A stretch of 8,139 nucleotides of DNA from a virus (lineage: Duplodnaviria; Heunggongvirae; Uroviricota; Caudoviricetes). The notes below the pieces were generated by a model, which did no database searches, was not told the DNA's origin, and was given only the letters and a program-made list of their open reading frames with translations. Positions 1,092 through 7,704 of the stretch are shown here, piece after piece (the first letter of the stretch is position 1; the number at the start of each line of letters is the position of its first letter). Location: positions 1 through 8,139 of IMG/VR virus record IMGVR_UViG_2554235185_000004. One strand, given 5' to 3'. A program made the translations under genes and the position numbers.

Positions 1092-1773
1092 CCAGTATTT
1101 ACAGTTTGTTCGTGAGCAACTCATGATTGCCACTGCAGATCTCAGTGGGTCGACAAAATGCCAGCTGGAAGCCTGGCAGGAAAATGCCCTGTTCGATACA
1201 GGGCGTTACAGACGCAAAAAAATTCGTTACCGCGATGAGGTAACCGGAAAAATGATCACGCGGGATAATCCCCCGATCCAGGGTAAACAATCACTGGCGA
1301 AAGGCTCATCAATTGCGCTGGTCAGTCCTGTTGAGTTTGCAACATCATCGTGGCGGCGTGCTGTTCTGGAACTGGAAGAACATCAGAAGGCGTGGTTGTT
1401 GTGGTGTTATGGCGGAAACATTTGCTGGGAGCATCAGATCGCGATAACGCAGTGGGGGTGGAGTGAATTTAAAACTCAGTCCGGCTCCAGAAAAATTGCA
1501 GTGAAAACGCTGGAGCGTGTGAAGAAGTTGATCTGGCTGGCGGCACAGGATGTCAGAGGATGGGTTACCGGGTGTGAGGTCTACCAGAGACAGGAGCTTG
1601 CCAGACTGTGTGGAGTTAAGCCTGATAACTGGAGCCATAATTATGCGAACTACTGGCGTGAGATGTGCGATATTTTTAAGCGCCTCGATAGAGAATCCTT
1701 GATTTGCTCCGTGAAAATAAGAGCGCAACAAAAAGCGACCTTTTCACGACGAGATATTGCAAAAGTCAATTAA
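1084..1773 (+). CDS. Putative late-gene antitermination protein Q (assigned mainly by position)
   Basis: 229-aa ORF from ATG 1084 (GAGGTG Shine-Dalgarno at 1071-1076; an alternative GTG lies at 1078), overlapping the rusA stop. Lies between rusA and a promoter-plus-terminator pair that precedes the lysis genes. I could not match the sequence to a specific Q family by eye. Confidence 0.5.
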   Translation: MNNQYLQFVREQLMIATADLSGSTKCQLEAWQENALFDTGRYRRKKIRYRDEVTGKMITRDNPPIQGKQSLAKGSSIALVSPVEFATSSWRRAVLELEEHQKAWLLWCYGGNICWEHQIAITQWGWSEFKTQSGSRKIAVKTLERVKKLIWLAAQDVRGWVTGCEVYQRQELARLCGVKPDNWSHNYANYWREMCDIFKRLDRESLICSVKIRAQQKATFSRRDIAKVN

Positions 1774-1800
1774 ATCGCGTATGTTTCGTATAAATCTGAT
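1757..1800 (+). promoter_or_regulatory. Candidate late promoter (PR'-like) with tandem -10-like hexamers
   Basis: TTGCAA (1757-1762), 17-bp spacer, TATGTT (1780-1785), then a second -10-like TATAAA (1789-1794). Located directly after the putative Q stop and upstream of a strong terminator, as for lambda PR'/qut/tR'. Confidence 0.3.
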
Positions 1801-1834
1801 ATTTTGCCGATTTTGTACGTGATGGCAAAGTAAG

Positions 1835-1862
1835 AAAAAACCACCGCCAGGTGGTTTTTTTT
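1835..1862 (+). terminator. Intrinsic terminator (tR'-like) downstream of putative Q
   Basis: A6 then CCACC (1841-1845), loop GCCA, GGTGG (1850-1854), then T8 (1855-1862). A/T flanks make it potentially bidirectional. Confidence 0.7.
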
Positions 1863-2183
1863 ATGTCCGAAAATCGCGTCAGTACAGTAAACGCGCTGGT
1901 GGTTGCGAATACGGGTCTTTCAGCTTGCCGGCTTTTTCGACAAGAGTTATTGGTATGTCACGTTAACCGGAAAAGGGAAAAAGACATGCTAAAACAGCAG
2001 GATATGACAGAAGCCGCCAGAGTGGTGTTTAATGAATTAAGCGTTACCGACCCGGCGACAGTCAGGGAGATTGCACAGAATACTTACCTTTCACGCGAAC
2101 GCTGCCAGTTAATACTGACCCAGCTTGTTATGGCGGGTCTGGCAGACTATCAGTTTGGTTGTTACAGACACCTTCAGTCCTGA
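1863..2183 (+). CDS. Hypothetical small protein (moron candidate); alternative start ATG 1986 gives 65 aa
   Basis: ORF from ATG 1863 (106 aa), or from ATG 1986 with a purine-rich AAGGG Shine-Dalgarno. Its TGA stop is embedded in a hairpin followed by a T-run (2171-2197). No homolog recognised. Confidence 0.4.
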   Translation: MSENRVSTVNALVVANTGLSACRLFRQELLVCHVNRKREKDMLKQQDMTEAARVVFNELSVTDPATVREIAQNTYLSRERCQLILTQLVMAGLADYQFGCYRHLQS

Positions 2184-2197
2184 AGGCTTTTTTATTT
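2171..2197 (+). terminator. Intrinsic terminator at the end of the small gene
   Basis: CCTTCA (2171-2176), loop GTCC, TGAAGG (2181-2186), followed by CTTTTTTATTT. Confidence 0.55.
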
Positions 2198-2497
2198 GTG
2201 GTAAATGGGCGGCTGGTGGGTGTGGTGGTTGTTGCTTTCCCGTTGCTGAAAAAGAAAACGCCAGACTGTTAGCCGGGTATCAGTTAGCGGGAGAAATTTT
2301 TAAATACTTCACAATTCAGGCGGTTGACTGTTGTCTGGTTTGCGGGGAGTTTGTTAAAAGAAACTGGCATGGTGAATCCCCCTGTGCGGAGGGGCAATCA
2401 GCGAGTAGGTATATGGGATAATCGCGGATTCAGGTGCTGGTACTGAATTCACCGGGAGGCACCCGGCACCATGCAATGGCACATAGCGCCACTCTCC

Positions 2498-2526
2498 AGC
2501 CCCTCTCCGGAGGGGCTGTTTATATT
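2498..2526 (+). terminator. GC-rich perfect hairpin with downstream T-rich tract (terminator-like, + orientation)
   Basis: AGCCCCTC (2498-2505), loop TCCG, GAGGGGCT (2510-2517), followed by GTTTATATTGATTTTG. A smaller hairpin CCGGG/CCCGG lies at 2452-2466. Confidence 0.5.
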
Positions 2527-2552
2527 GATTTTGTCAGATGTGAGTAAACTCC

Positions 2553-2888
2553 TTATGGACTTTGTTGTTTTAGCCCATAAGGACATATTTGCAGAGTGCA
2601 ACGGTTATTAAAGCATTCATTCAATACGTTATCTGTATTTGTAGGGCATTCCTGGCTGTTTTTGATTAAATTCCAGAATGTTTTATTGAATGGTACTACG
2701 TTGTAAATGGTTACAGGTAGCACTTTGTTATTGAGCATGATACCTGTGTGAGTCAGTGTAAATATACTTTCAGGAGGTAAGAAAGCATCCGATTGATACC
2801 AGATTATTAATTTTATTTTACTCCATATGACTGAAAAAGATATTCCGCATGATGGCTGGATAACTGTATCAATCACAATCCACTTCAT
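2553..2888 (-). CDS. Hypothetical protein encoded in an AT-rich island
   Basis: 111-aa minus-strand ORF with a good Shine-Dalgarno (AAGGAAA about 4 nt upstream of ATG at 2888-2886). Lies inside a visibly AT-rich block (about 2530-3130) that contrasts with flanking phage DNA. No homolog recognised. Confidence 0.45.
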
Positions 2889-3148
2889 TTAGTTTCCTTG
2901 TTTATGCCTTGCTGGTGATGTTCTGAAAAGTATAAATGATATTTTTGATTGTAAACCATAGAGCAGAATTATTTTTCTGATGTTGTTTATTGTTTATTTA
3001 AATGCAGGGTGGTTTATATCTCGTCTTGTAGTTTATCCATGCATATCTGCTTGATGATGAGGTTTTTATTTAAGGTATGGTTTTGTGTTTTTTCTGTATT
3101 ACATGTCAGGTATTTTAAAGAATCATTTTTCAGATGGTGGAAAGAACC

Positions 3149-3337
3149 ATGGCATTTAAACACTATGATGTTGTCAGGGCGGCGTCGCCGTCAGATCTTG
3201 CGGAAAAGCTGACACATAAACTGAAAGAGGGCTGGCAGCCGTTTGGTAGTCCGGTGGCCATAACCCCTTATACCCTGATGCAGGCGATTGCAGCAGAAGG
3301 TGATGTGGTGGTCAGTGGTGCAACTGAGCCGGAGTGA
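3149..3337 (+). pseudogene. DUF1737-like small ORF, possibly the N-terminal remnant of a larger (nanS-p esterase-like) prophage gene
   Basis: 62-aa ORF from ATG 3149 (GGTGGAAAG upstream), MAFKHYDVVRAASPSDLAEKLTHKLKEGWQPFGSPVAITPYTLMQAIAAEGD. From memory this resembles the DUF1737 N-terminal domain of prophage 9-O-acetylesterase genes located before S in Stx-type phages. Downstream DNA (3337-3492) is open in other frames but not this one, consistent with a frameshifted or truncated remnant. Confidence 0.4.
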
Positions 3338-3580
3338 TACTACGTCATCGTACTGGCCCGGCATTCCAGGCCATAAAAGACGGTCTGGCAGTGGGACTAA
3401 ATGCACTGACGCTGACGGATATTACCAAAAATGCAACGTATGGCGTTGAGATAGAAAGTCTGGTGCTGGAGATAAATGCACCGGCATCATCATAAAAAGT
3501 GAGCCAGTCAAATGGAAGGTATCGTTAAACTCACCGGTAGTGTCAGTGGGTCGTCTGAGACGCCTGCATGAGTTATCAGA

Positions 3581-3612
3581 GCCATCAGTACTTAACTGGT
3601 GGCTTTTTTATT
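3581..3612 (+). terminator. Intrinsic terminator immediately upstream of the holin gene
   Basis: GCCATCAG (3581-3588), loop TACTTAA, CTGGTGGC (3596-3603; one G-U wobble), followed by TTTTTTATTG. Confidence 0.55.
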
Positions 3613-3644
3613 GTTGTCAGCTTCCGGATAACGGGAGACGGGGT

Positions 3645-3860
3645 ATGTACCAGATGGAAAAAATCACAACAGGTGTGTCATACACCACGTCAGCGGTGGG
3701 AACGGGCTACTGGTTCCTGCAGTTGCTGGACAGGGTTTCCCCGTCTCAGTGGGCGGCAATAGGCGTGCTGGGGAGTCTGCTGTTTGGGCTGCTGACATAT
3801 CTGACTAACCTGTATTTCAAAATCAAAGAGGACCGGCGTAAGGCGGCGCGGGGAGAGTAA
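3645..3860 (+). CDS. S: Class II holin, phage 21 S21-type pinholin (EssD-like), with dual-start motif
   Basis: 71 aa, [71 protein letters not shown]. Near-identical by memory to S21/EssD pinholins (two transmembrane domains, charged C-terminus). GGGAGA Shine-Dalgarno at 3633-3638. Met1 and Met4 give the dual-start arrangement. Confidence 0.9.
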
Positions 3861-3864
3861 AGTG

Positions 3865-4755
3865 ATGAATAAAAAATATGAACTGGTTGTTAAGGGGATA
3901 AATAATTACGGGGATAAGGTTACTGTTACTGTGAAGTCGGAAGGTGACGGGCAAGCGTCGCTGTTGTTGCCAGATGTGGCGATTAGTCTTGACCGTACTG
4001 AAGGTGCCACGCTGGAGTTTTACGAAGCTGAGGCGAAAAAGCAGGCGAAGCAGTTTTTCATGGATGTTGCTGCCGGGTTATGTGAATGGAACGAACCGTT
4101 GCCGGAAAAGCGCCCCGTAATTTTAGAGGCGCAGGATGTGTTGATAACCTACAAAGGAAAGCTACCGGGAAGAATTACTTGTTCTCTGAAGATGCCGCCG
4201 TCAACACTGCGGTCAGAAAAAGATGATGTTGAATCACGTATTGAAAAACTGGAGAGCTACGTCGTTGAGCTGAATAAGAAATGGTCGATATTGGTGCCTT
4301 CTGGCGATGAAAAGCAGTTTGCTGCGTTTGACGATTATTGTCGGAAAGTGATGAGCAGAAATCTCGCAGAGTGTTTCAGTATTCATAATGATAATTTCAG
4401 TGACCCGGAATGGGAGTGTAACCGGCCATCCTTTGTTGTATCCGGTGATGCTGGGAAAATAACCATCTCAGAAAATGGGAAAGTAACACCTCCATCGCAC
4501 CAGCACAGTGAGGAGCTCATTGAATTTGCCATTGATTACCTGAAGAACAATAAAAAGCAGGGGCTGATGAAGCGCGTTGGCCGTTGCATGGGATATCTTC
4601 AGGTAGCCGCTGAGATTGAAGCGCTGGCCAGTGGTGCTGATAAGGATGCAATTGTGCGGGAGGCTCTTCTTCGTGATTTTAATACTCCACCCTTTAAAAA
4701 AGTGCCGGCTTACTGGCTTCATCCGGGGCTGACTTATCTTAAAGTGCGTATTTAG
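3865..4755 (+). CDS. Hypothetical 296-aa soluble protein inserted between holin and endolysin (unknown function)
   Basis: Long ORF from ATG 3865 (GTG at 3862 also in frame), with GGGGAGAG Shine-Dalgarno lying in the 3' end of the holin gene and the start 5 nt after the holin stop (translational coupling). No signal peptide or transmembrane segment seen, and no motif I recognise. Confidence 0.75.
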   Translation: MNKKYELVVKGINNYGDKVTVTVKSEGDGQASLLLPDVAISLDRTEGATLEFYEAEAKKQAKQFFMDVAAGLCEWNEPLPEKRPVILEAQDVLITYKGKLPGRITCSLKMPPSTLRSEKDDVESRIEKLESYVVELNKKWSILVPSGDEKQFAAFDDYCRKVMSRNLAECFSIHNDNFSDPEWECNRPSFVVSGDAGKITISENGKVTPPSHQHSEELIEFAIDYLKNNKKQGLMKRVGRCMGYLQVAAEIEALASGADKDAIVREALLRDFNTPPFKKVPAYWLHPGLTYLKVRI

Positions 4756-4791
4756 TGGGCCAGGGACAGCGGCTGAATATTTAATATATCC

Positions 4792-5325
4792 ATGAACACC
4801 AAAATCAAATACGGCCTGTCGGCTGCCGTTCTGGCGCTGATTGCCGCTGGTGCGCCTGCGCCTGACATTCTCGACCAGTTTCTGGATGAAAAGGAAGGCA
4901 ACCACACCACGGCATACCGTGATGGTGCAGGTATCTGGACCATCTGCCGTGGTGCCATCATGGTGGATGGCAAACCTGTCGTTCCGGGCATGAAGTTGTC
5001 GAAGGAAAAATGCGACCAGGTTAACGCCATTGAGCGTGATAAAGCGCTGGCGTGGGTGGAGAAAAACATCAGAGTGCCGCTGACCGAACCCCAGAAAGCG
5101 GGGATCGCGTCATTCTGTCCGTACAACATTGGTCCCGGTAAGTGTTTCCCGTCGACGTTTTACAGACGAATTAATGCTGGTGATCGAAAAGGTGCCTGCG
5201 AAGCGATTCGCTGGTGGATTAAGGACGGTGGCAGAGACTGCCGTATTCGTTCAAACAACTGTTACGGTCAGGTATCCCGTCGTGACCAGGAGAGCGCGCT
5301 GGCGTGCTGGGGTATCGACAGATAA
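4792..5325 (+). CDS. R: SAR endolysin (phage lysozyme, T4/P22-type glycoside hydrolase family 24, R21-like)
   Basis: 177 aa. N-terminal Gly/Ala-rich weakly hydrophobic signal-anchor-release segment (KYGLSAAVLALIAAGAPAP). Catalytic E...D...T spacing (EGNHTTAYRDGAGIWTICRG) typical of P22/21-type lysozymes. A SAR endolysin is the expected partner of a pinholin. Confidence 0.9.
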   Translation: MNTKIKYGLSAAVLALIAAGAPAPDILDQFLDEKEGNHTTAYRDGAGIWTICRGAIMVDGKPVVPGMKLSKEKCDQVNAIERDKALAWVEKNIRVPLTEPQKAGIASFCPYNIGPGKCFPSTFYRRINAGDRKGACEAIRWWIKDGGRDCRIRSNNCYGQVSRRDQESALACWGIDR

Positions 5326-5481
5326 GCAGAATATTTTGCTGAAAAATGAGGAATGGCCACGCGGGCGGATAACACGAAATCCTGCGAACTGGCGAAACGT
5401 AAGTGAATAAAAGTAAAAACCCCGTTTGTTGGCACCAAGCGAGGTTTTGTGTTTCTGACCTTGAGTAAGGCAAGGGAGAAC

Positions 5482-5664
5482 ATGGCGAAGTGTAAACGAA
5501 TTCTGTTGAGGTTGACTATGAAAAATGGCCTTGAACTGAAAGCGCCTGTAACTGATGACATCAGCAGAGCACTGGCTTTTGCCATTAAGTGGGTGGCGGT
5601 CGGTGTTGCTGTGTCCCCGATGCTGTATGGGCTGGCAAAACTGGTCATTGCGTTGAAATCGTGA
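5482..5664 (+). CDS. Hypothetical small protein (60 aa) with hydrophobic C-terminal segment
   Basis: ATG 5482 preceded by AGGGAG (5473-5478). Sequence [60 protein letters not shown] has a basic N-terminus and a hydrophobic C-terminal stretch. Located between the endolysin and Rz. Confidence 0.4.
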
Positions 5665-5678
5665 AGGGAGGATTAAGC

Positions 5679-5810
5679 ATGTCAGACAAACTCATAACGC
5701 TGGCGAAGATCCTCTGTGTAATTGTCGGCATTTCATTTTCACTAATGCTGGTTGCTCTTTTTCTTTCCATGGCCTGGATGATGTTGTCTTCGTCGGGGTT
5801 GCTGGGGTGA
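5679..5810 (+). CDS. Hypothetical small single-pass membrane protein (43 aa)
   Basis: ATG 5679 preceded by a strong GGGAGG Shine-Dalgarno (5665-5670). [43 protein letters not shown] is almost entirely one transmembrane helix. Its TGA (5808-5810) overlaps a GTG at 5807 that begins the Rz frame (GTGA coupling). Confidence 0.45.
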
Positions 5811-6280
5811 ACATAAACCGAATGCTTTCCGCGTTTATCGTTATTCTGCTGGTGGCCTGTGGTGCGCTGTGGATGGCAACAGACCATTACCGTGATAACG
5901 CGATTACCTACAAAGCGCAGCGCGATAACAAAGCCAGTGAACTGAAGCTGGCGAACGCAACCATTACTGATATGCAGGTGCGCCAGCGCGATGTTGCTGC
6001 GCTCGATGCAAAATACTCGAGGGAATTAGCCGATGCGAGAGCTGAAAATGAAACTCTTCGCGCTGACGTTGCCGCTGGTCGTAAGCGCCTGCGGATCAAC
6101 GCCACCTGTCCAGGCTCCGTGCGTGAAGCCCCCACCACCTCCGGCGTGGATAATGCAACCGGCCCCCAACTGGCAGACACCGTTACACGGGATTATTTCA
6201 CCCTCAGAGAGCGGCTGATGACGATGCACAAGCAACTGGAAGGGGCACAGGACTATATCCGCACTCAGTGCCTGAAATAA
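5807..6280 (+). CDS. Rz: Rz, inner-membrane spanin subunit (i-spanin)
   Basis: Strong similarity by memory to RzpD (shared [44 protein letters not shown]). N-terminal transmembrane segment followed by a coiled-coil-like periplasmic domain. Start could be GTG 5807 or ATG 5822. Confidence 0.88.
6033..6218 (+). CDS. Rz1: Rz1, outer-membrane lipoprotein spanin subunit (o-spanin), embedded in the +1 frame of Rz
   Basis: 61-aa ORF wholly inside Rz in another frame. Lipobox VVSAC, then a proline-rich mature region with [14 protein letters not shown], as in RzoD/Rz1. Alternative start at ATG 6048. Confidence 0.85.
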
Positions 6281-6590
6281 GTTTTGTTGATGCGCCGTAT
6301 CGTCGCTATATTCCCTCATTAACAGAGACCGCAGCCCGACAGGGAGACTCCTCTGCGCGAGTGTGCGGGGATAATTAAAAACGATGCACACCGGGTTTTT
6401 ACCGCGTTAATGATTCGCGGGTTTATCCCGGTGCGATGGTGGAAGAAACAGGAAGCTGTATTACAGAAAGTGCTACTACTGTATCCCGATGCGATGTATG
6501 TAATGTGAGTCAGATAATGGCACAGGATGTGGTGATGTGGCAGTCTGGAACACAGGATATATTGTCAGAATAAGACCCGTAGGAATAAAA

Positions 6591-6917
6591 ATGAAAAGAC
6601 GCCTTTTACTACTTTTTCTGTTATCTGTCCTGGCAGTGGGATGCTCGCAGCAAAAAGCTGATGAGCCCCGGCAATTAGTGACGGTGTATCCACGATATCC
6701 GGAATATGCTGCAGCAAATTATATCAAGGGGCTGGTTGAGGTTAAGTTCGATATTGGTGCTGATGGGACTGTGACACGGATCGTTTTTCTCCGCTCAGAG
6801 CCTCATAATTTGTTTCGTGATGAAGTGGTGAAGGCCATGGCGAAATGGCGATTTGAAAAGAATCGCCCCTGTCAGGGAGTGAAGAGACAATTTATCTTTA
6901 CGCCGTCACGTCCTTGA
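6591..6917 (+). CDS. Lipoprotein with TonB C-terminal-like domain (moron)
   Basis: ATG 6591 with AGGAA Shine-Dalgarno. Signal peptide plus lipobox (MKRRLLLLFLLSVLAVGC, Ser at +2). Mature region PRYPEYAAANYIKGLVEVKFDIGADGTVTRIVFLRSEPHNLFRDEVVKAMAKWRFE aligns by eye with the E. coli TonB C-terminal domain [56 protein letters not shown]. Preceded by about 310 bp of non-coding DNA. Confidence 0.75.
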   Translation: MKRRLLLLFLLSVLAVGCSQQKADEPRQLVTVYPRYPEYAAANYIKGLVEVKFDIGADGTVTRIVFLRSEPHNLFRDEVVKAMAKWRFEKNRPCQGVKRQFIFTPSRP

Positions 6918-7008
6918 TGCTTCCAGGTAGAGAGGGGCTGGACGCAGGAGAAAAATGAAAGAGCCAGCGGTTATATTTTTGTCATGGCTGACGAGGAATG
7001 ATGGAAGA

Positions 7009-7058
7009 AGGCGTTGTATGCCACACAACGCCTCACTGTTCATTTCTTCTTTTTCTCT
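7009..7058. terminator. Hairpin between convergent genes (possible bidirectional terminator)
   Basis: AGGCGTTGT (7009-7017), loop ATGCCAC, ACAACGCCT (7025-7033), a perfect 9-bp stem. T-rich tract TTCATTTCTTCTTTTTCTC follows on the + strand after a short spacer; the U-tract on the minus side is weaker. The T-rich tract overlaps the last codons and stop (7040-7042) of the minus-strand ORF. Confidence 0.4.
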
Positions 7059-7219
7059 GGTGGAACCCGATGAATAAGAGTTGCACTGGTTTCCGATGAG
7101 ATGGCGATATACTCGGGCAAAGTATGCTGGCAGTTTTCCAACTGGTCAAAAATACCTGCTCTCGTCTGTTGCAATGCCTGCAGCATGCGGCGGCAATGCG
7201 CCTTGCTTTTACTAACCAT
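7040..7219 (-). CDS. Hypothetical small protein (59 aa; the longer 117-aa frame to 7393 is less likely)
   Basis: Internal ATG at 7219 is preceded on the minus strand by a strong GAGGAAGGAAAG Shine-Dalgarno. The extension up to 7393 is proline-rich and overlaps the upstream gene in another frame. Product MVSKSKAHCRRMLQALQQTRAGIFDQLENCQHTLPEYIAISSETSATLIHRVPPEKKKK is not recognised. Confidence 0.35.
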   Translation of the reverse strand: MVSKSKAHCRRMLQALQQTRAGIFDQLENCQHTLPEYIAISSETSATLIHRVPPEKKKK

Positions 7220-7280
7220 CTTTCCTTCCTCTATCAGTCGCTGCGTGAACTCATCATGTAATACCAGGTAAATGCGGATG

Positions 7281-7532
7281 TTATCGGTTTTGGCTACGCA
7301 GCATAGTACAAAACGGACAGGTGCATCCCGGGACGGGGGAGGCGTCACATGTCCCTGTGATGGTTGTTCCGGGTAATGCACTGTGTGGGGCATAAAAATG
7401 TCCGATAATTTTACTTTCTACCGCAGTTAGTTGATTCGTTGGTCCTGGTAGCACATTGGGCGAGGATTTAAATGCCAGGCAACTGAAGGATGATGTTGCA
7501 AGGGAGATAGCGAGAATATTTCTGATTTTCAT
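7281..7532 (-). CDS. Small secreted, cysteine-rich protein or lipoprotein (signal peptide MKIRNILAISLATSSFSC), Bor-position moron
   Basis: Minus-strand ATG at 7532 with a GAGG-containing Shine-Dalgarno. Classic N-terminal signal peptide with a possible lipobox (SSFSC) or signal peptidase I site. Mature part has 5 Cys (TGTCDASPVPGCTCPFC). Same location and orientation as lambda bor, but not Bor-like by sequence. Confidence 0.5.
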   Translation of the reverse strand: MKIRNILAISLATSSFSCLAFKSSPNVLPGPTNQLTAVESKIIGHFYAPHSALPGTTITGTCDASPVPGCTCPFCTMLRSQNR

Positions 7533-7668
7533 TTGATGATGCCTCTGTGTGAAATGACGGTAAACGACGCACTTGTGCCGGCACATAATAGCAAGCACCA
7601 TAATAGATCAGATTCGATTCTTGCTGTAAGTGATAATTATTCTCGTTTTCGGGTCCTTTCCGTCGATC

Positions 7669-7704
7669 CAACAGGTTACGGGGCGGCGACCTCGCGGGTT
7701 TTCG
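7669..7704. other. cos: cosN, cohesive-end site (12-nt cohesive end GGGCGGCGACCT at 7681-7692)
   Basis: CGATCCAACAGGTTACG|GGGCGGCGACCTCGCGGGTTTTCGCTATTTATGAAAATTTTCCGG matches the joined right and left ends of the lambda genome almost base for base (from memory). Lies about 180 bp upstream of nu1. Confidence 0.85.

Follow-up and report, generated by a model that had tools for sequence, protein, structure and literature searches.

The TonB box of TonB-dependent transporters pairs with strand β3 in TonB's C-terminal domain (CTD) by parallel β-augmentation, "predominantly by backbone hydrogen bonds" (PMC11658791; PMC6699858). Transport through FecA and FhuA was reportedly inhibited by engineered periplasmic TonB fragments, which place the C-domain in the periplasm without energy coupling (Howard et al. 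2001, J Bacteriol 183:5885, as cited in PMC9841981), and a TonB-box pentapeptide lowers colicin killing and φ80 infection (PMC9841981). Small phage-encoded outer-membrane lipoproteins acting periplasmically on the TonB-dependent receptor FhuA are described for T5 (Llp) and for φ80, N15 and HK022 (Cor) in PMC9586334 and the bioRxiv 2026 FhuA:Llp paper; each blocks a single receptor used by its own phage. λ Bor, also a small outer-membrane lipoprotein, belongs to the lambdoid morons of the Rz-to-cos interval. FusB of Pectobacterium (7zc8, 9hi3) is a full-length, energised TonB paralogue.

The window analysed here is a stretch of 8,139 nt. Upstream of the gene under study it encodes DUF968, RusA, Q, a P21-type holin, lysozyme and Rz/Rz1, and terminase and head genes follow downstream in an identical E. 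coli locus, in agreement with the prophage origin given in the initial annotation; the carrier element is a lambdoid (phage-21-type) E. coli prophage. The gene runs from an ATG at 6591 to a TGA stop at 6915-6917, and its protein is identical to phage 21 CPT_21_73 and to RefSeq WP_000830178.1. Start 6591, which is also used in RefSeq and in the phage 21 annotation, was favoured over a GTG at 6537 because of the placement of the AGGA. The features of the gene are as follows.

6591..6917, + strand, coding sequence of the TonB C-domain lipoprotein, 108 aa, standalone
6581..6584, + strand, Shine-Dalgarno AGGA with a 6-nt spacer before ATG 6591
6591..6644, + strand, predicted lipoprotein signal peptide (residues 1-17) and lipid-modified Cys18; PS51257-type rule, lipobox LAVGC
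6645..6665, + strand, short tether SQQKADE (residues 19-25) linking the lipid anchor to the folded domain; the TonB alignment starts at P26 = TonB P154
6666..6899, + strand, TonB_C domain, residues 26-103 = E. coli TonB ~154-230, from profiles, alignment and model
6870..6899, + strand, last β-strand, residues 94-103 (GVKRQFIFT region) = TonB β3, from model secondary structure and alignments

The gene already has annotations and is less new than had been implied: it has been called TonB-like from the annotation of the EDL933 prophage onward, and phage 21 has the explicit product name "TonB C-terminal domain protein". It goes unmentioned in the phage 21 genome announcement, and the searchable full-text literature yielded annotations only, with no functional study of the 108-aa protein or any relative.

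Likeness to the TonB C-terminal domain had been claimed, with a Pfam profile search named as the check, and that search returned PF03544 at E=7.3e-13, with 49.2 bits where the gathering score is 24.6. TIGR01352 matched at 47.4 bits against a cut-off of 27.1, and phmmer against the PDB returned the E. coli TonB CTD chains 1u07/1xx3/2gsk/2grx at 1e-14, with an ungapped alignment of residues 23-103 to TonB ~150-230. Against the NCBIfam PRK10819 TonB equivalogs, scores were 45-69 bits, far below the 265-448 required, and the match was confined to the final 75-85 positions of the profile. The AF2 model has a mean pLDDT of 87.8, which climbs from block 21-30 on, after the tether, and averages 96-98 in the blocks spanning residues 31-100. 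Its elements (E28-30, H38-42, E47-55, E61-70, H76-83, E94-103) make up the same β-α-β-β-α-β fold as in the TonB CTD, leaving the β3 edge exposed, and the TonB-box-pairing strand β3 is the last element of the model. Foldseek placed the model on 2gsk_B and 2grx_C, which are TonB bound to its receptors BtuB and FhuA, with a target-normalised TM of 0.92 and an rmsd of 0.9-1.0 Å; TolA domain III was matched only at E>0.1.

Set beside the E. coli TonB CTD (~150-239; 1u07, 1xx3, 2gsk_B, 2grx_C), the domain has the common fold at ~38-40% identity over 80 ungapped residues, and keeps β3, the YP motif and an aromatic core made up of Y36, F53, F75, W86, F88 and F103. It differs in ending four residues short of TonB's C-terminus and in a last β-strand that is more basic than TonB β3, with K/R conserved across the lipoprotein family. 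TonB Q160 and R166 are implicated in transporter contacts; in the alignment they are replaced (Y33 or L33, and Y39). The 108-aa protein has neither the ExbB/ExbD-coupling membrane helix nor the proline-rich rod of TonB, its N-terminus being a predicted cleavable signal peptide with 7 residues before the domain, and it would be lipid-anchored with no ExbB/ExbD or proton-motive-force coupling.

Lipoproteins were recognised by a regular-expression rule demanding a basic n-region, a hydrophobic core and, among the first 35 residues, [LVI..][ASTVI..][GAS]-C. The initial annotation had called the product a lipoprotein, and under this PROSITE-PS51257-type rule the call stands: the N-terminus reads MKRR-LLLLFLLSVLAVG-C18, with n-region MKRR, a hydrophobic core of 12 residues and the lipobox LAVG before C18. 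The lipobox is retained in every relative examined. At position +2 the protein has Ser, and the relatives examined have Ser, Ala, Thr or Val there, never Asp; since the residue is Ser and not Asp, outer-membrane sorting is predicted (Lol avoidance rule), and from this we infer an outer-membrane location. The mature form is small, and basic at a pI of ~9.8. By every available test of sequence and model, the protein appears to be a lipid-anchored, periplasm-facing TonB C-domain.

The other described systems differ more. Engineered TonB fragments, as presented in PMC9841981, are artificial, soluble and overexpressed, whereas the prophage protein is natural, predicted to be lipid-tethered, and evolutionarily maintained. 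Llp and Cor are likewise small phage-encoded lipoproteins, and TonB-dependent transporters would be the common target, but there is no relationship in sequence or fold: the only Pfam match is TonB_C, the PHROG matches are phrog_1267 and phrog_34172, and the structural matches are all TonB CTDs. Unlike Llp and Cor, the TonB_C lipoprotein would target the generic TonB box, and its carrier phage 21 uses LamB as receptor (10.1101/2024.04.15.589635); as LamB is not TonB-dependent, action on TonB boxes would not conflict with the needs of phage 21. Bor occupies the same slot and is a neighbour in phage 21, but is unrelated in sequence and fold, and bor is transcribed oppositely whereas the TonB_C gene is co-oriented with the late operon. 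The C-domain of FusB shares the fold (TM 0.82-0.84) and shows that TonB_C domains can acquire additional partners.

The gene was found in 1617 of 5426 complete E. coli genomes (~30%), but among 50,697 phage records just 15 have it, and these are lambdoid or Stx-converting phages or phages recovered from bacterial strains; a fold search of BFVD matched no viral TonB_C structure. Two E. coli alleles, both of 108 aa, share 72% amino acid identity with a dN/dS of 0.12 at a dS of 1.5, and by this measure the gene is under purifying selection and functional, not a relic. Lipoprotein relatives directly follow lysis cassettes in Salmonella and Klebsiella prophages; these cassettes are non-homologous, and the same-strand position just after the cassette is seen behind at least four non-homologous endolysin/spanin sets. 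Other relatives lie at a conserved, syntenic, non-phage chromosomal locus in Klebsiella and Raoultella species, where they adjoin a glycine-zipper outer-membrane lipoprotein and a DUF1440 membrane protein. The lipoprotein signal peptide is kept across lineages that are only 35-45% identical.

Fur operators were sought with the 7-1-7 consensus TGATAATnATTATCA or as a 19-mer. Canonical 7-1-7 operators precede the start codon by 9-18 nt in the Salmonella-prophage and the Klebsiella/Raoultella chromosomal groups, and by ~45 nt in a group of viral contigs (L014-L019); at this same offset, the Klebsiella-phage group shows no more than weaker matches to the 19-mer. The 7-1-7 match is exact in L005-L013, L055 and L057, whereas L056, L058 and the L016 group deviate from it at one position. 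These operators tie the TonB_C lipoprotein family to iron/TonB physiology and imply host-controlled expression. At the present allele, no 7-1-7 site with three or fewer mismatches was found near the TonB_C gene and no 19-mer with three or fewer mismatches in the window, the best upstream 19-mer match being 11/19, which is chance level. A scan of 6200-7700 gave no convincing sigma-70 promoter on the + strand upstream of the gene and no terminator 3' of it, the matches being at chance level. With no recognisable promoter, Fur box or terminator at this allele, expression in the lysogen is unproven; the gene could be transcribed solely within the late operon, and exclusion would then be of little value.

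Our best guess for the function of this prophage accessory gene ("moron") is the occupation of TonB boxes of outer-membrane transporters. The lipoprotein would dock onto these boxes through the exposed edge of its last β-strand, with TonB-dependent colicins as possible further docking partners. Lacking the TonB membrane helix and proline-rich rod, it cannot transmit energy. Filling the boxes at the outer membrane would put it in competition with scarce host TonB. Entry by TonB-requiring phages (T1 and φ80 types), group B colicins, microcins and siderophore antibiotics would be dampened, at the cost to the lysogen of part of its iron and B12 uptake. We put this explanation forward tentatively, at slightly below an even chance. 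TonB-box binding, inhibition and a selective benefit are what we infer; divergence from TonB in sequence would be tolerated by a binding mode that consists mostly of backbone hydrogen bonds. The precedent named in the initial annotation, inhibition of TBDT iron import by an overexpressed periplasmic TonB domain, proved to be real (Howard 2001, as cited in PMC9841981). Such a decoy, which the initial annotation had proposed as a means of excluding TonB-dependent phages and colicins or of modulating iron uptake, is plausible, with a precedent, and unproven, and its outcome would be exclusion or modulation; of that proposal, the structural half is supported.

Several observations count against a decoy or qualify it. 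The conserved chromosomal orthologues of Klebsiella and Raoultella, with their Fur boxes, sit oddly with a protein that does nothing but inhibit. Fur-controlled genes are usually iron-acquisition genes, and a supporting role therefore fits these orthologues better than pure inhibition. TonB Q160/R166 are replaced, and TonB_C domains can have other partners, as in the binding of the FusB C-domain to ferredoxin (9hi3). The N-terminus of the domain, which in TonB leads to the inner membrane, is here tied to a membrane by 7 residues, a geometry that may or may not let the β3 edge face a transporter's TonB box. A search of the PADLOC-DB defence-protein models gave no matching family at E<=0.1.

A wider form of the same proposal, which is possible but which we regard as doubtful, would make this a natural "dominant-negative TonB" lipoprotein family in prophages of Enterobacterales (E. 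coli, Salmonella, Klebsiella) and on Klebsiella/Raoultella chromosomes. Lying under the outer membrane and de-repressed from Fur in most lineages, it would cap TonB boxes and thereby protect broadly, whatever the receptor, against TonB-dependent phages, group B colicins, microcins and antibiotics conjugated to siderophores. Exclusion would then be generic and act at the energy-coupling step, not at one receptor, and Fur de-repression, if it is the switch for the family, coincides with peak abundance of TonB-dependent receptors. If TonB boxes are capped, a prophage gene present in about a third of E. coli strains, and in many of Salmonella and Klebsiella, would tune all import that depends on TonB at once: that of iron siderophores and B12, of colicins and microcins, of TonB-dependent phages and of "Trojan-horse" siderophore antibiotics (cefiderocol-type). 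This would bear on phage-therapy host range, gut bacteriocin ecology and susceptibility to siderophore-drug conjugates, and the TonB-transporter interaction, which is pursued as an antibiotic target (PMC9841981), would have a compact inhibitor of natural origin.

The alternative that survives best is that the outer-membrane-anchored TonB_C domain is an iron-related helper or adaptor that supports or tunes TonB-dependent uptake under iron starvation, as a lysogen fitness gene. It might hold or pre-extend TonB boxes, keep TonB from engaging futilely with transporters that carry no ligand, or, like the C-domain of FusB with ferredoxin, bind some substrate or partner protein. The canonical Fur operators before most relatives, including those at the syntenic non-phage Klebsiella/Raoultella locus, argue for such a role, as do the high prevalence in E. 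coli and the ferredoxin-binding C-domain of a TonB homologue among the fold matches (9hi3, 7zc8). We know of no mechanism, however, by which an unenergised TonB_C domain would promote transport, and the Fur box is absent at this allele; moreover, the sole experimental precedent for a free periplasmic TonB domain, as relayed in PMC9841981, is inhibition. On balance we consider a helper unlikely, though deserving of some weight; if true, it would be a new accessory component of a system studied for 50 years.

Distinctly unlikely in our judgement is a Bor-like envelope or virulence lipoprotein, in which the TonB_C/TolA-like fold would bind peptidoglycan, another outer-membrane protein or a host factor and alter serum resistance, envelope stability or colonisation. 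The gene does lie where morons are classically found, between Rz and the terminase genes, a slot which bor shares with it in phage 21 and which bor/ybcV fill in DLP12; the small, basic mature protein and the chromosomal neighbours (glycine-zipper outer-membrane lipoprotein, DUF1440 membrane protein) would also suit such a role. Yet the similarity is specific to TonB CTDs, with TolA domain III at E>0.1 only, the core residues of TonB persist, as does the β3 edge, and the Fur link indicates iron.

A lysis accessory, made with the late genes and helping or timing envelope disruption, is very improbable. The protein matches phrog_1267, labelled "Rz-like spanin", over its full length, its gene directly follows the lysis cassette on the same strand behind the non-homologous endolysin/spanin sets counted above, and its own promoter was not detected at this allele. 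The lysis cassette of the window, however, is already complete.

5807..6280, + strand, i-spanin gene Rz with embedded o-spanin gene Rz1 (6033-6218); context, lysis cassette complete without the TonB_C gene

Besides this full Rz/Rz1 pair, the globular TonB_C domain shows neither proline-rich o-spanin character nor the C-terminal membrane helix of unimolecular spanins, the gene is absent from virulent phages, and relatives have host Fur operators, some being chromosomal and outside prophages. Spanin identity through PHROG 1267 was rejected; given the separate Rz/Rz1 and the globular domain, the label is most likely a positional mislabel.

That the gene is a non-functional remnant of a captured tonB, as the earlier annotators' terms "TonB fragment" and "partial tonB-like membrane protein" would have it, is hardly credible and effectively refuted by the selection analysis (dN/dS 0.12 at near-saturated dS, alleles of identical length), against which also stand a lipoprotein signal peptide acquired and kept across lineages 35-45% identical, a good RBS, and a TonB identity of only ~38%, so that any capture was not recent.

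The gene had been credited with its own upstream non-coding region. There are indeed 310 nt (6281-6590) before it, but their 5' two-thirds are generic lambdoid intergenic DNA, in which two features were considered.

6291..6480, + strand, conserved upstream block, common to phage 21 and JLK-2012 and not gene-specific, from comparison with E. coli genomes
6436..6573, + strand, 45-codon upstream ORF (CPT_21_72 in phage 21), probably not coding; frame not conserved in the JLK-2012 allele

The block gave no match in an Rfam search and was rejected as a gene-specific regulatory element or RNA, since 4582 of the 5426 E. coli genomes have it and K-12 carries it in DLP12, where it separates bor from ybcV. 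The ORF was rejected as a partner gene, its reading frame not being conserved in the second (JLK-2012) allele. The sole 7-1-7-like site in the window lies at 7631-7645, with two mismatches, far downstream of the TonB_C gene.

The window is the part of a lambdoid prophage given over to late regulation and lysis, in the order DUF968/HNH, RusA, Q antiterminator, P21-type holin, DUF1327/YdfR, lysozyme, Rz with embedded Rz1, a 310-nt gap, and the TonB_C gene. E. coli strain 7/2 has an identical stretch that runs on into genes for terminase, portal, capsid, and tail; this, together with the lysis genes 5' of TonB_C, bears out the initial annotation's description of the gene as prophage-encoded. The 297-aa DUF1327/YdfR-family protein between the P21-type holin and the endolysin (3862-4755, + strand; phrog_1085, unknown function) is a truncated pseudogene in the otherwise identical 7/2 locus. 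A 111-aa ORF at 2553-2888 (- strand), antisense between Q and the lysis genes, corresponds to the RefSeq 'anti-adapter protein IraM' (WP_000871291.1), a host-physiology gene that stabilizes RpoS. The features around the start of the TonB_C gene are:

6436-6573, + strand, 45-codon ORF, listed for phage 21 as hypothetical protein CPT_21_72
6581-6584, + strand, Shine-Dalgarno AGGA, 6-nt spacer to the ATG of the TonB_C gene
6591-6917, + strand, TonB_C gene, ATG start, 108 codons, TGA stop

The 45-codon ORF is probably not a gene because its reading frame is not kept in the second E. coli (JLK-2012) allele. The TonB_C gene had also been credited with its own upstream non-coding region; the 310-nt gap is present, but the conserved block within it (~6285-6480) is intergenic DNA of a generic lambdoid kind, present in up to 11 copies in 4582 of 5426 E. 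coli genomes, at 694 plasmid places, and between bor and ybcV in K-12 DLP12. Between the two alleles the block is more conserved (~88%) than the coding sequence (~73%). Small GC hairpins, e.g., CCGCG-N9-CGCGG, occur in it. In phage 21 (L002 5196-6000), Rz and the TonB_C cassette are separated by an antisense bor. The window (6281-6590) lacks bor, and its cassette directly follows Rz, which by this comparison makes the slot modular.

The N-terminus consists of MKRR, 12 hydrophobic residues, and the lipobox LAVG-C (Cys at residue 18), which satisfies the PROSITE-PS51257-type rule and confirms that the product is a lipoprotein, as first annotated. From the Ser at position +2, we infer an outer membrane location. 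Only 7 residues (SQQKADE) tether the lipidated Cys to the first TonB-aligned residue. Pfam TonB_C scored 49.2 bits against the protein (gathering score 24.6) and TIGR01352 scored 47.4 bits (cut-off 27.1), while full-length TonB equivalog models matched by their last 75-85 positions only, at 45-69 bits vs cut-offs of 265-448. Searching PDB sequences with phmmer returned the E. coli TonB CTD chains 1u07, 1xx3, 2gsk_B, and 2grx_C at ~1e-14, residues 23-103 aligning without gaps to ~150-230 of E. coli TonB; the TonB C-domain assignment thus stands. The protein was modeled with AlphaFold2 from a 17-sequence family alignment, giving a mean pLDDT of 87.8, averages of 96-98 for residue blocks 31-100, and the element order β-α-β-β-α-β. 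Foldseek placed the model on TonB of the BtuB:TonB and FhuA:TonB complexes (target-normalized TM 0.92, rmsd 0.9-1.0 Å), and TolA domain III was matched at E>0.1 only; a search of BFVD gave no structure with the fold. Retained from TonB are the YP motif and the aromatic core (TonB Y163, F180, F202, W213, Y215, F230), TonB Q160 is replaced by Y in the window/phage 21 allele (hereafter this allele) and by L in the second, and R166 is replaced by Y. Since the protein ends 4 residues before the TonB C-terminus, its last element in both alignment and model is the β3-equivalent strand, residues 94-103. With neither a membrane helix nor a proline-rich rod, it belongs to the TonB_C domain family but lacks the defining features of TonB proteins; it is the TonB C-domain alone and not TonB in the functional sense.

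Binding of the TonB box is by parallel β-augmentation, in which it joins strand β3 of the TonB C-domain, chiefly through backbone hydrogen bonds (PMC11658791; PMC6699858). A further paper (PMC9841981) describes TonB as limiting, with transporters competing for it, and a TonB-box pentapeptide as lowering colicin killing and φ80 infection; it also cites Howard et al. 2001, where an overproduced periplasmic TonB domain is reported to inhibit iron import by TonB-dependent transporters. A folded TonB_C domain that has its β3 edge exposed, is concentrated at the outer membrane, and cannot exert pull would therefore be expected to cap TonB boxes in competition with TonB. For the lysogen, the gain would be that fewer TonB-dependent phages, group B colicins, and microcins enter, and the carrier phage 21 would be unhindered because its receptor is LamB (10.1101/2024.04.15.589635). 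Capping of this kind is the explanation preferred here, tentatively and at a little under an even chance. Engineered periplasmic TonB fragments would be an analogy, having the same mode of action as that proposed. Llp and Cor, too, are phage outer membrane lipoproteins, working from the periplasm on TonB-dependent transporters as the TonB_C lipoprotein would, but they have no sequence or fold relation to it. If true, capping would bear materially on the ecology of phages and bacteriocins and on siderophore-drug susceptibility.

In most relatives, a canonical Fur operator lies just 5' of the start codon, at a distance of 9-18 nt or, in the L016 group, ~45 nt. The exact 7-1-7 consensus TGATAATnATTATCA was found in 11 loci, the Salmonella-type prophages L005-L013 and the chromosomal loci L055 and L057, and is the sole exact match in each (up to 10 kb); L056, L058, and the L016 group have a 7-1-7 site with one mismatch. 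The sites are located as follows:

L005-L013, 4972-4986 (most)
L055 and L057, 4005-4019
L056, ~3975-3990
L016, ~4925-4945

In the Salmonella-prophage, Klebsiella-phage, and chromosomal groups, the classical Fur 19-mer was matched at 12-16 of 19 positions, with the offset fixed at 9-18 nt; in the L016 group, it was matched at 16/19, ~45 nt upstream. A score of 15/19 was attained by 1 of 1036 random 153-nt windows from those loci. Because operators precede most relatives, the family appears from sequence to be mostly iron-regulated through host Fur. For the relatives that carry them, the operators imply an own promoter and expression in the lysogen, and would tie function to conditions that induce TonB-dependent transporters. 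This allele is the exception: its best upstream 19-mer match is 11/19, which is chance level, no 7-1-7 site lies near the TonB_C gene in the window, and a simple scan gave no sigma-70-like promoter and no terminator. The second allele carries another palindrome at that position, GAATAAG-A-CTTATTC; in this allele, a deletion has removed half of it. By its position, the gene is at a minimum within reach of late transcription antiterminated by Q.

A non-prophage homologue was found in Klebsiella and Raoultella at a conserved syntenic chromosomal locus (~1400-6300 of each of L055-L060, from Klebsiella sp. I138/R390, Raoultella planticola, R. ornithinolytica, R. lignicola, and a Raoultella MAG), in the order LacI-family regulator, glycine-zipper (Rick_17kDa_Anti) lipoprotein, TonB_C lipoprotein, DUF1440 membrane protein, and 2-thiouracil desulfurase. 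In an Erwinia genome, the homologue adjoins araA/araB. Many TonB_C-bearing Klebsiella prophages also have a DUF1440 gene, upstream of the lysis cassette and 61-63% identical to the chromosomal one, which hints that TonB_C and DUF1440 may be a functional pair. For the chromosomal orthologues with Fur boxes, supporting or modulating iron uptake would be no worse a fit than capping, which weakens the case for a cap; such a helper or adaptor function is unlikely overall, though it keeps a real chance. That the protein serves as an envelope or virulence lipoprotein unrelated to TonB boxes is distinctly unlikely.

An exhaustive HMMER search gave 2795 matches, the nearest of which, after E. coli fragments, include standalone 107-133-aa proteins of 35-46% identity, interleaved with long multi-repeat TonB_C proteins. 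The long proteins (P0036, P0043, P0047, P0166, and others), which are among the best matches, are 340-1300 aa with 3-6 tandem TonB_C-like stretches, an architecture very unlike TonB. Of the short relatives, Salmonella enterica has one group (>1000 contigs) and the Klebsiella pneumoniae complex another, and the only name given to any of them is 'TonB family protein'. Most short relatives have a lipobox and a few an ordinary signal peptide. The gene is directly 3' of the lysis cassette and on its strand in GenBank phages and 47 IMG/VR viral contigs, the preceding cassettes being mutually non-homologous:

P21 pinholin, SAR endolysin, Rz
λ-S-type holin, GH19, DUF2514
HP1-type holin, lysozyme
further Klebsiella set

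This distribution fits a temperate-phage accessory gene in the classical moron slot, not a lysis component. Over its full length (6591-6914), the protein matched phrog_1267 (E=5e-43), a family labeled 'Rz-like spanin' and filed under lysis; a lysis accessory is nevertheless highly improbable given that distribution, the complete spanin pair (Rz/Rz1) already in the window, and a globular protein without a C-terminal membrane helix. Position best explains the spanin label, which looks like a position-based misannotation of the TonB_C lipoprotein family.

The sighting of the gene is already on record, as it is both annotated and very common. The protein is 100% identical to phage 21 CPT_21_73 (OL657228, 'TonB C-terminal domain protein'), encoded there after bor, and is WP_000830178.1, 'TonB family protein', in RefSeq; other records use 'TonB fragment', 'protein TonB', or 'Partial tonB-like membrane protein encoded within prophage CP-933N'. 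Among 5426 complete E. coli genomes, 1617 have the gene, 1202 with this allele (at least 99% identity) and ~390 with the second (~73% nucleotide identity); among 50,697 phage records, only 15 have it, all lambdoid/Stx-converting or recovered from bacterial strains. Both alleles encode 108 aa (72% amino acid identity), the lipobox is kept in all variants, and dN/dS between the alleles is 0.12 at dS ~1.5, for signal peptide and domain alike. By these figures the gene is real and maintained, and such selection effectively excludes a dead tonB fragment. PADLOC gave no match for the protein, a point against the cap, and the searchable literature contained no described function and no experiment on it; the lipoprotein-decoy reading, the Fur control of the family, and the chromosomal counterparts appear undescribed there.

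Downstream of the TonB_C gene, an unannotated 106-codon ORF (7281-7601, - strand) had no match in Pfam or PHROG; from an internal start (MKIRNILAISLATSSFSCLA...), it resembles a small Cys-rich protein with a signal peptide. Just upstream of this ORF, at 7631-7645, is a Fur-like 7-1-7 site (TGATAATTATTCTCG, 2 mismatches), and the equivalent region of K-12 DLP12 has an exact Fur 7-1-7 upstream of ylcI (L052 4086-4100).
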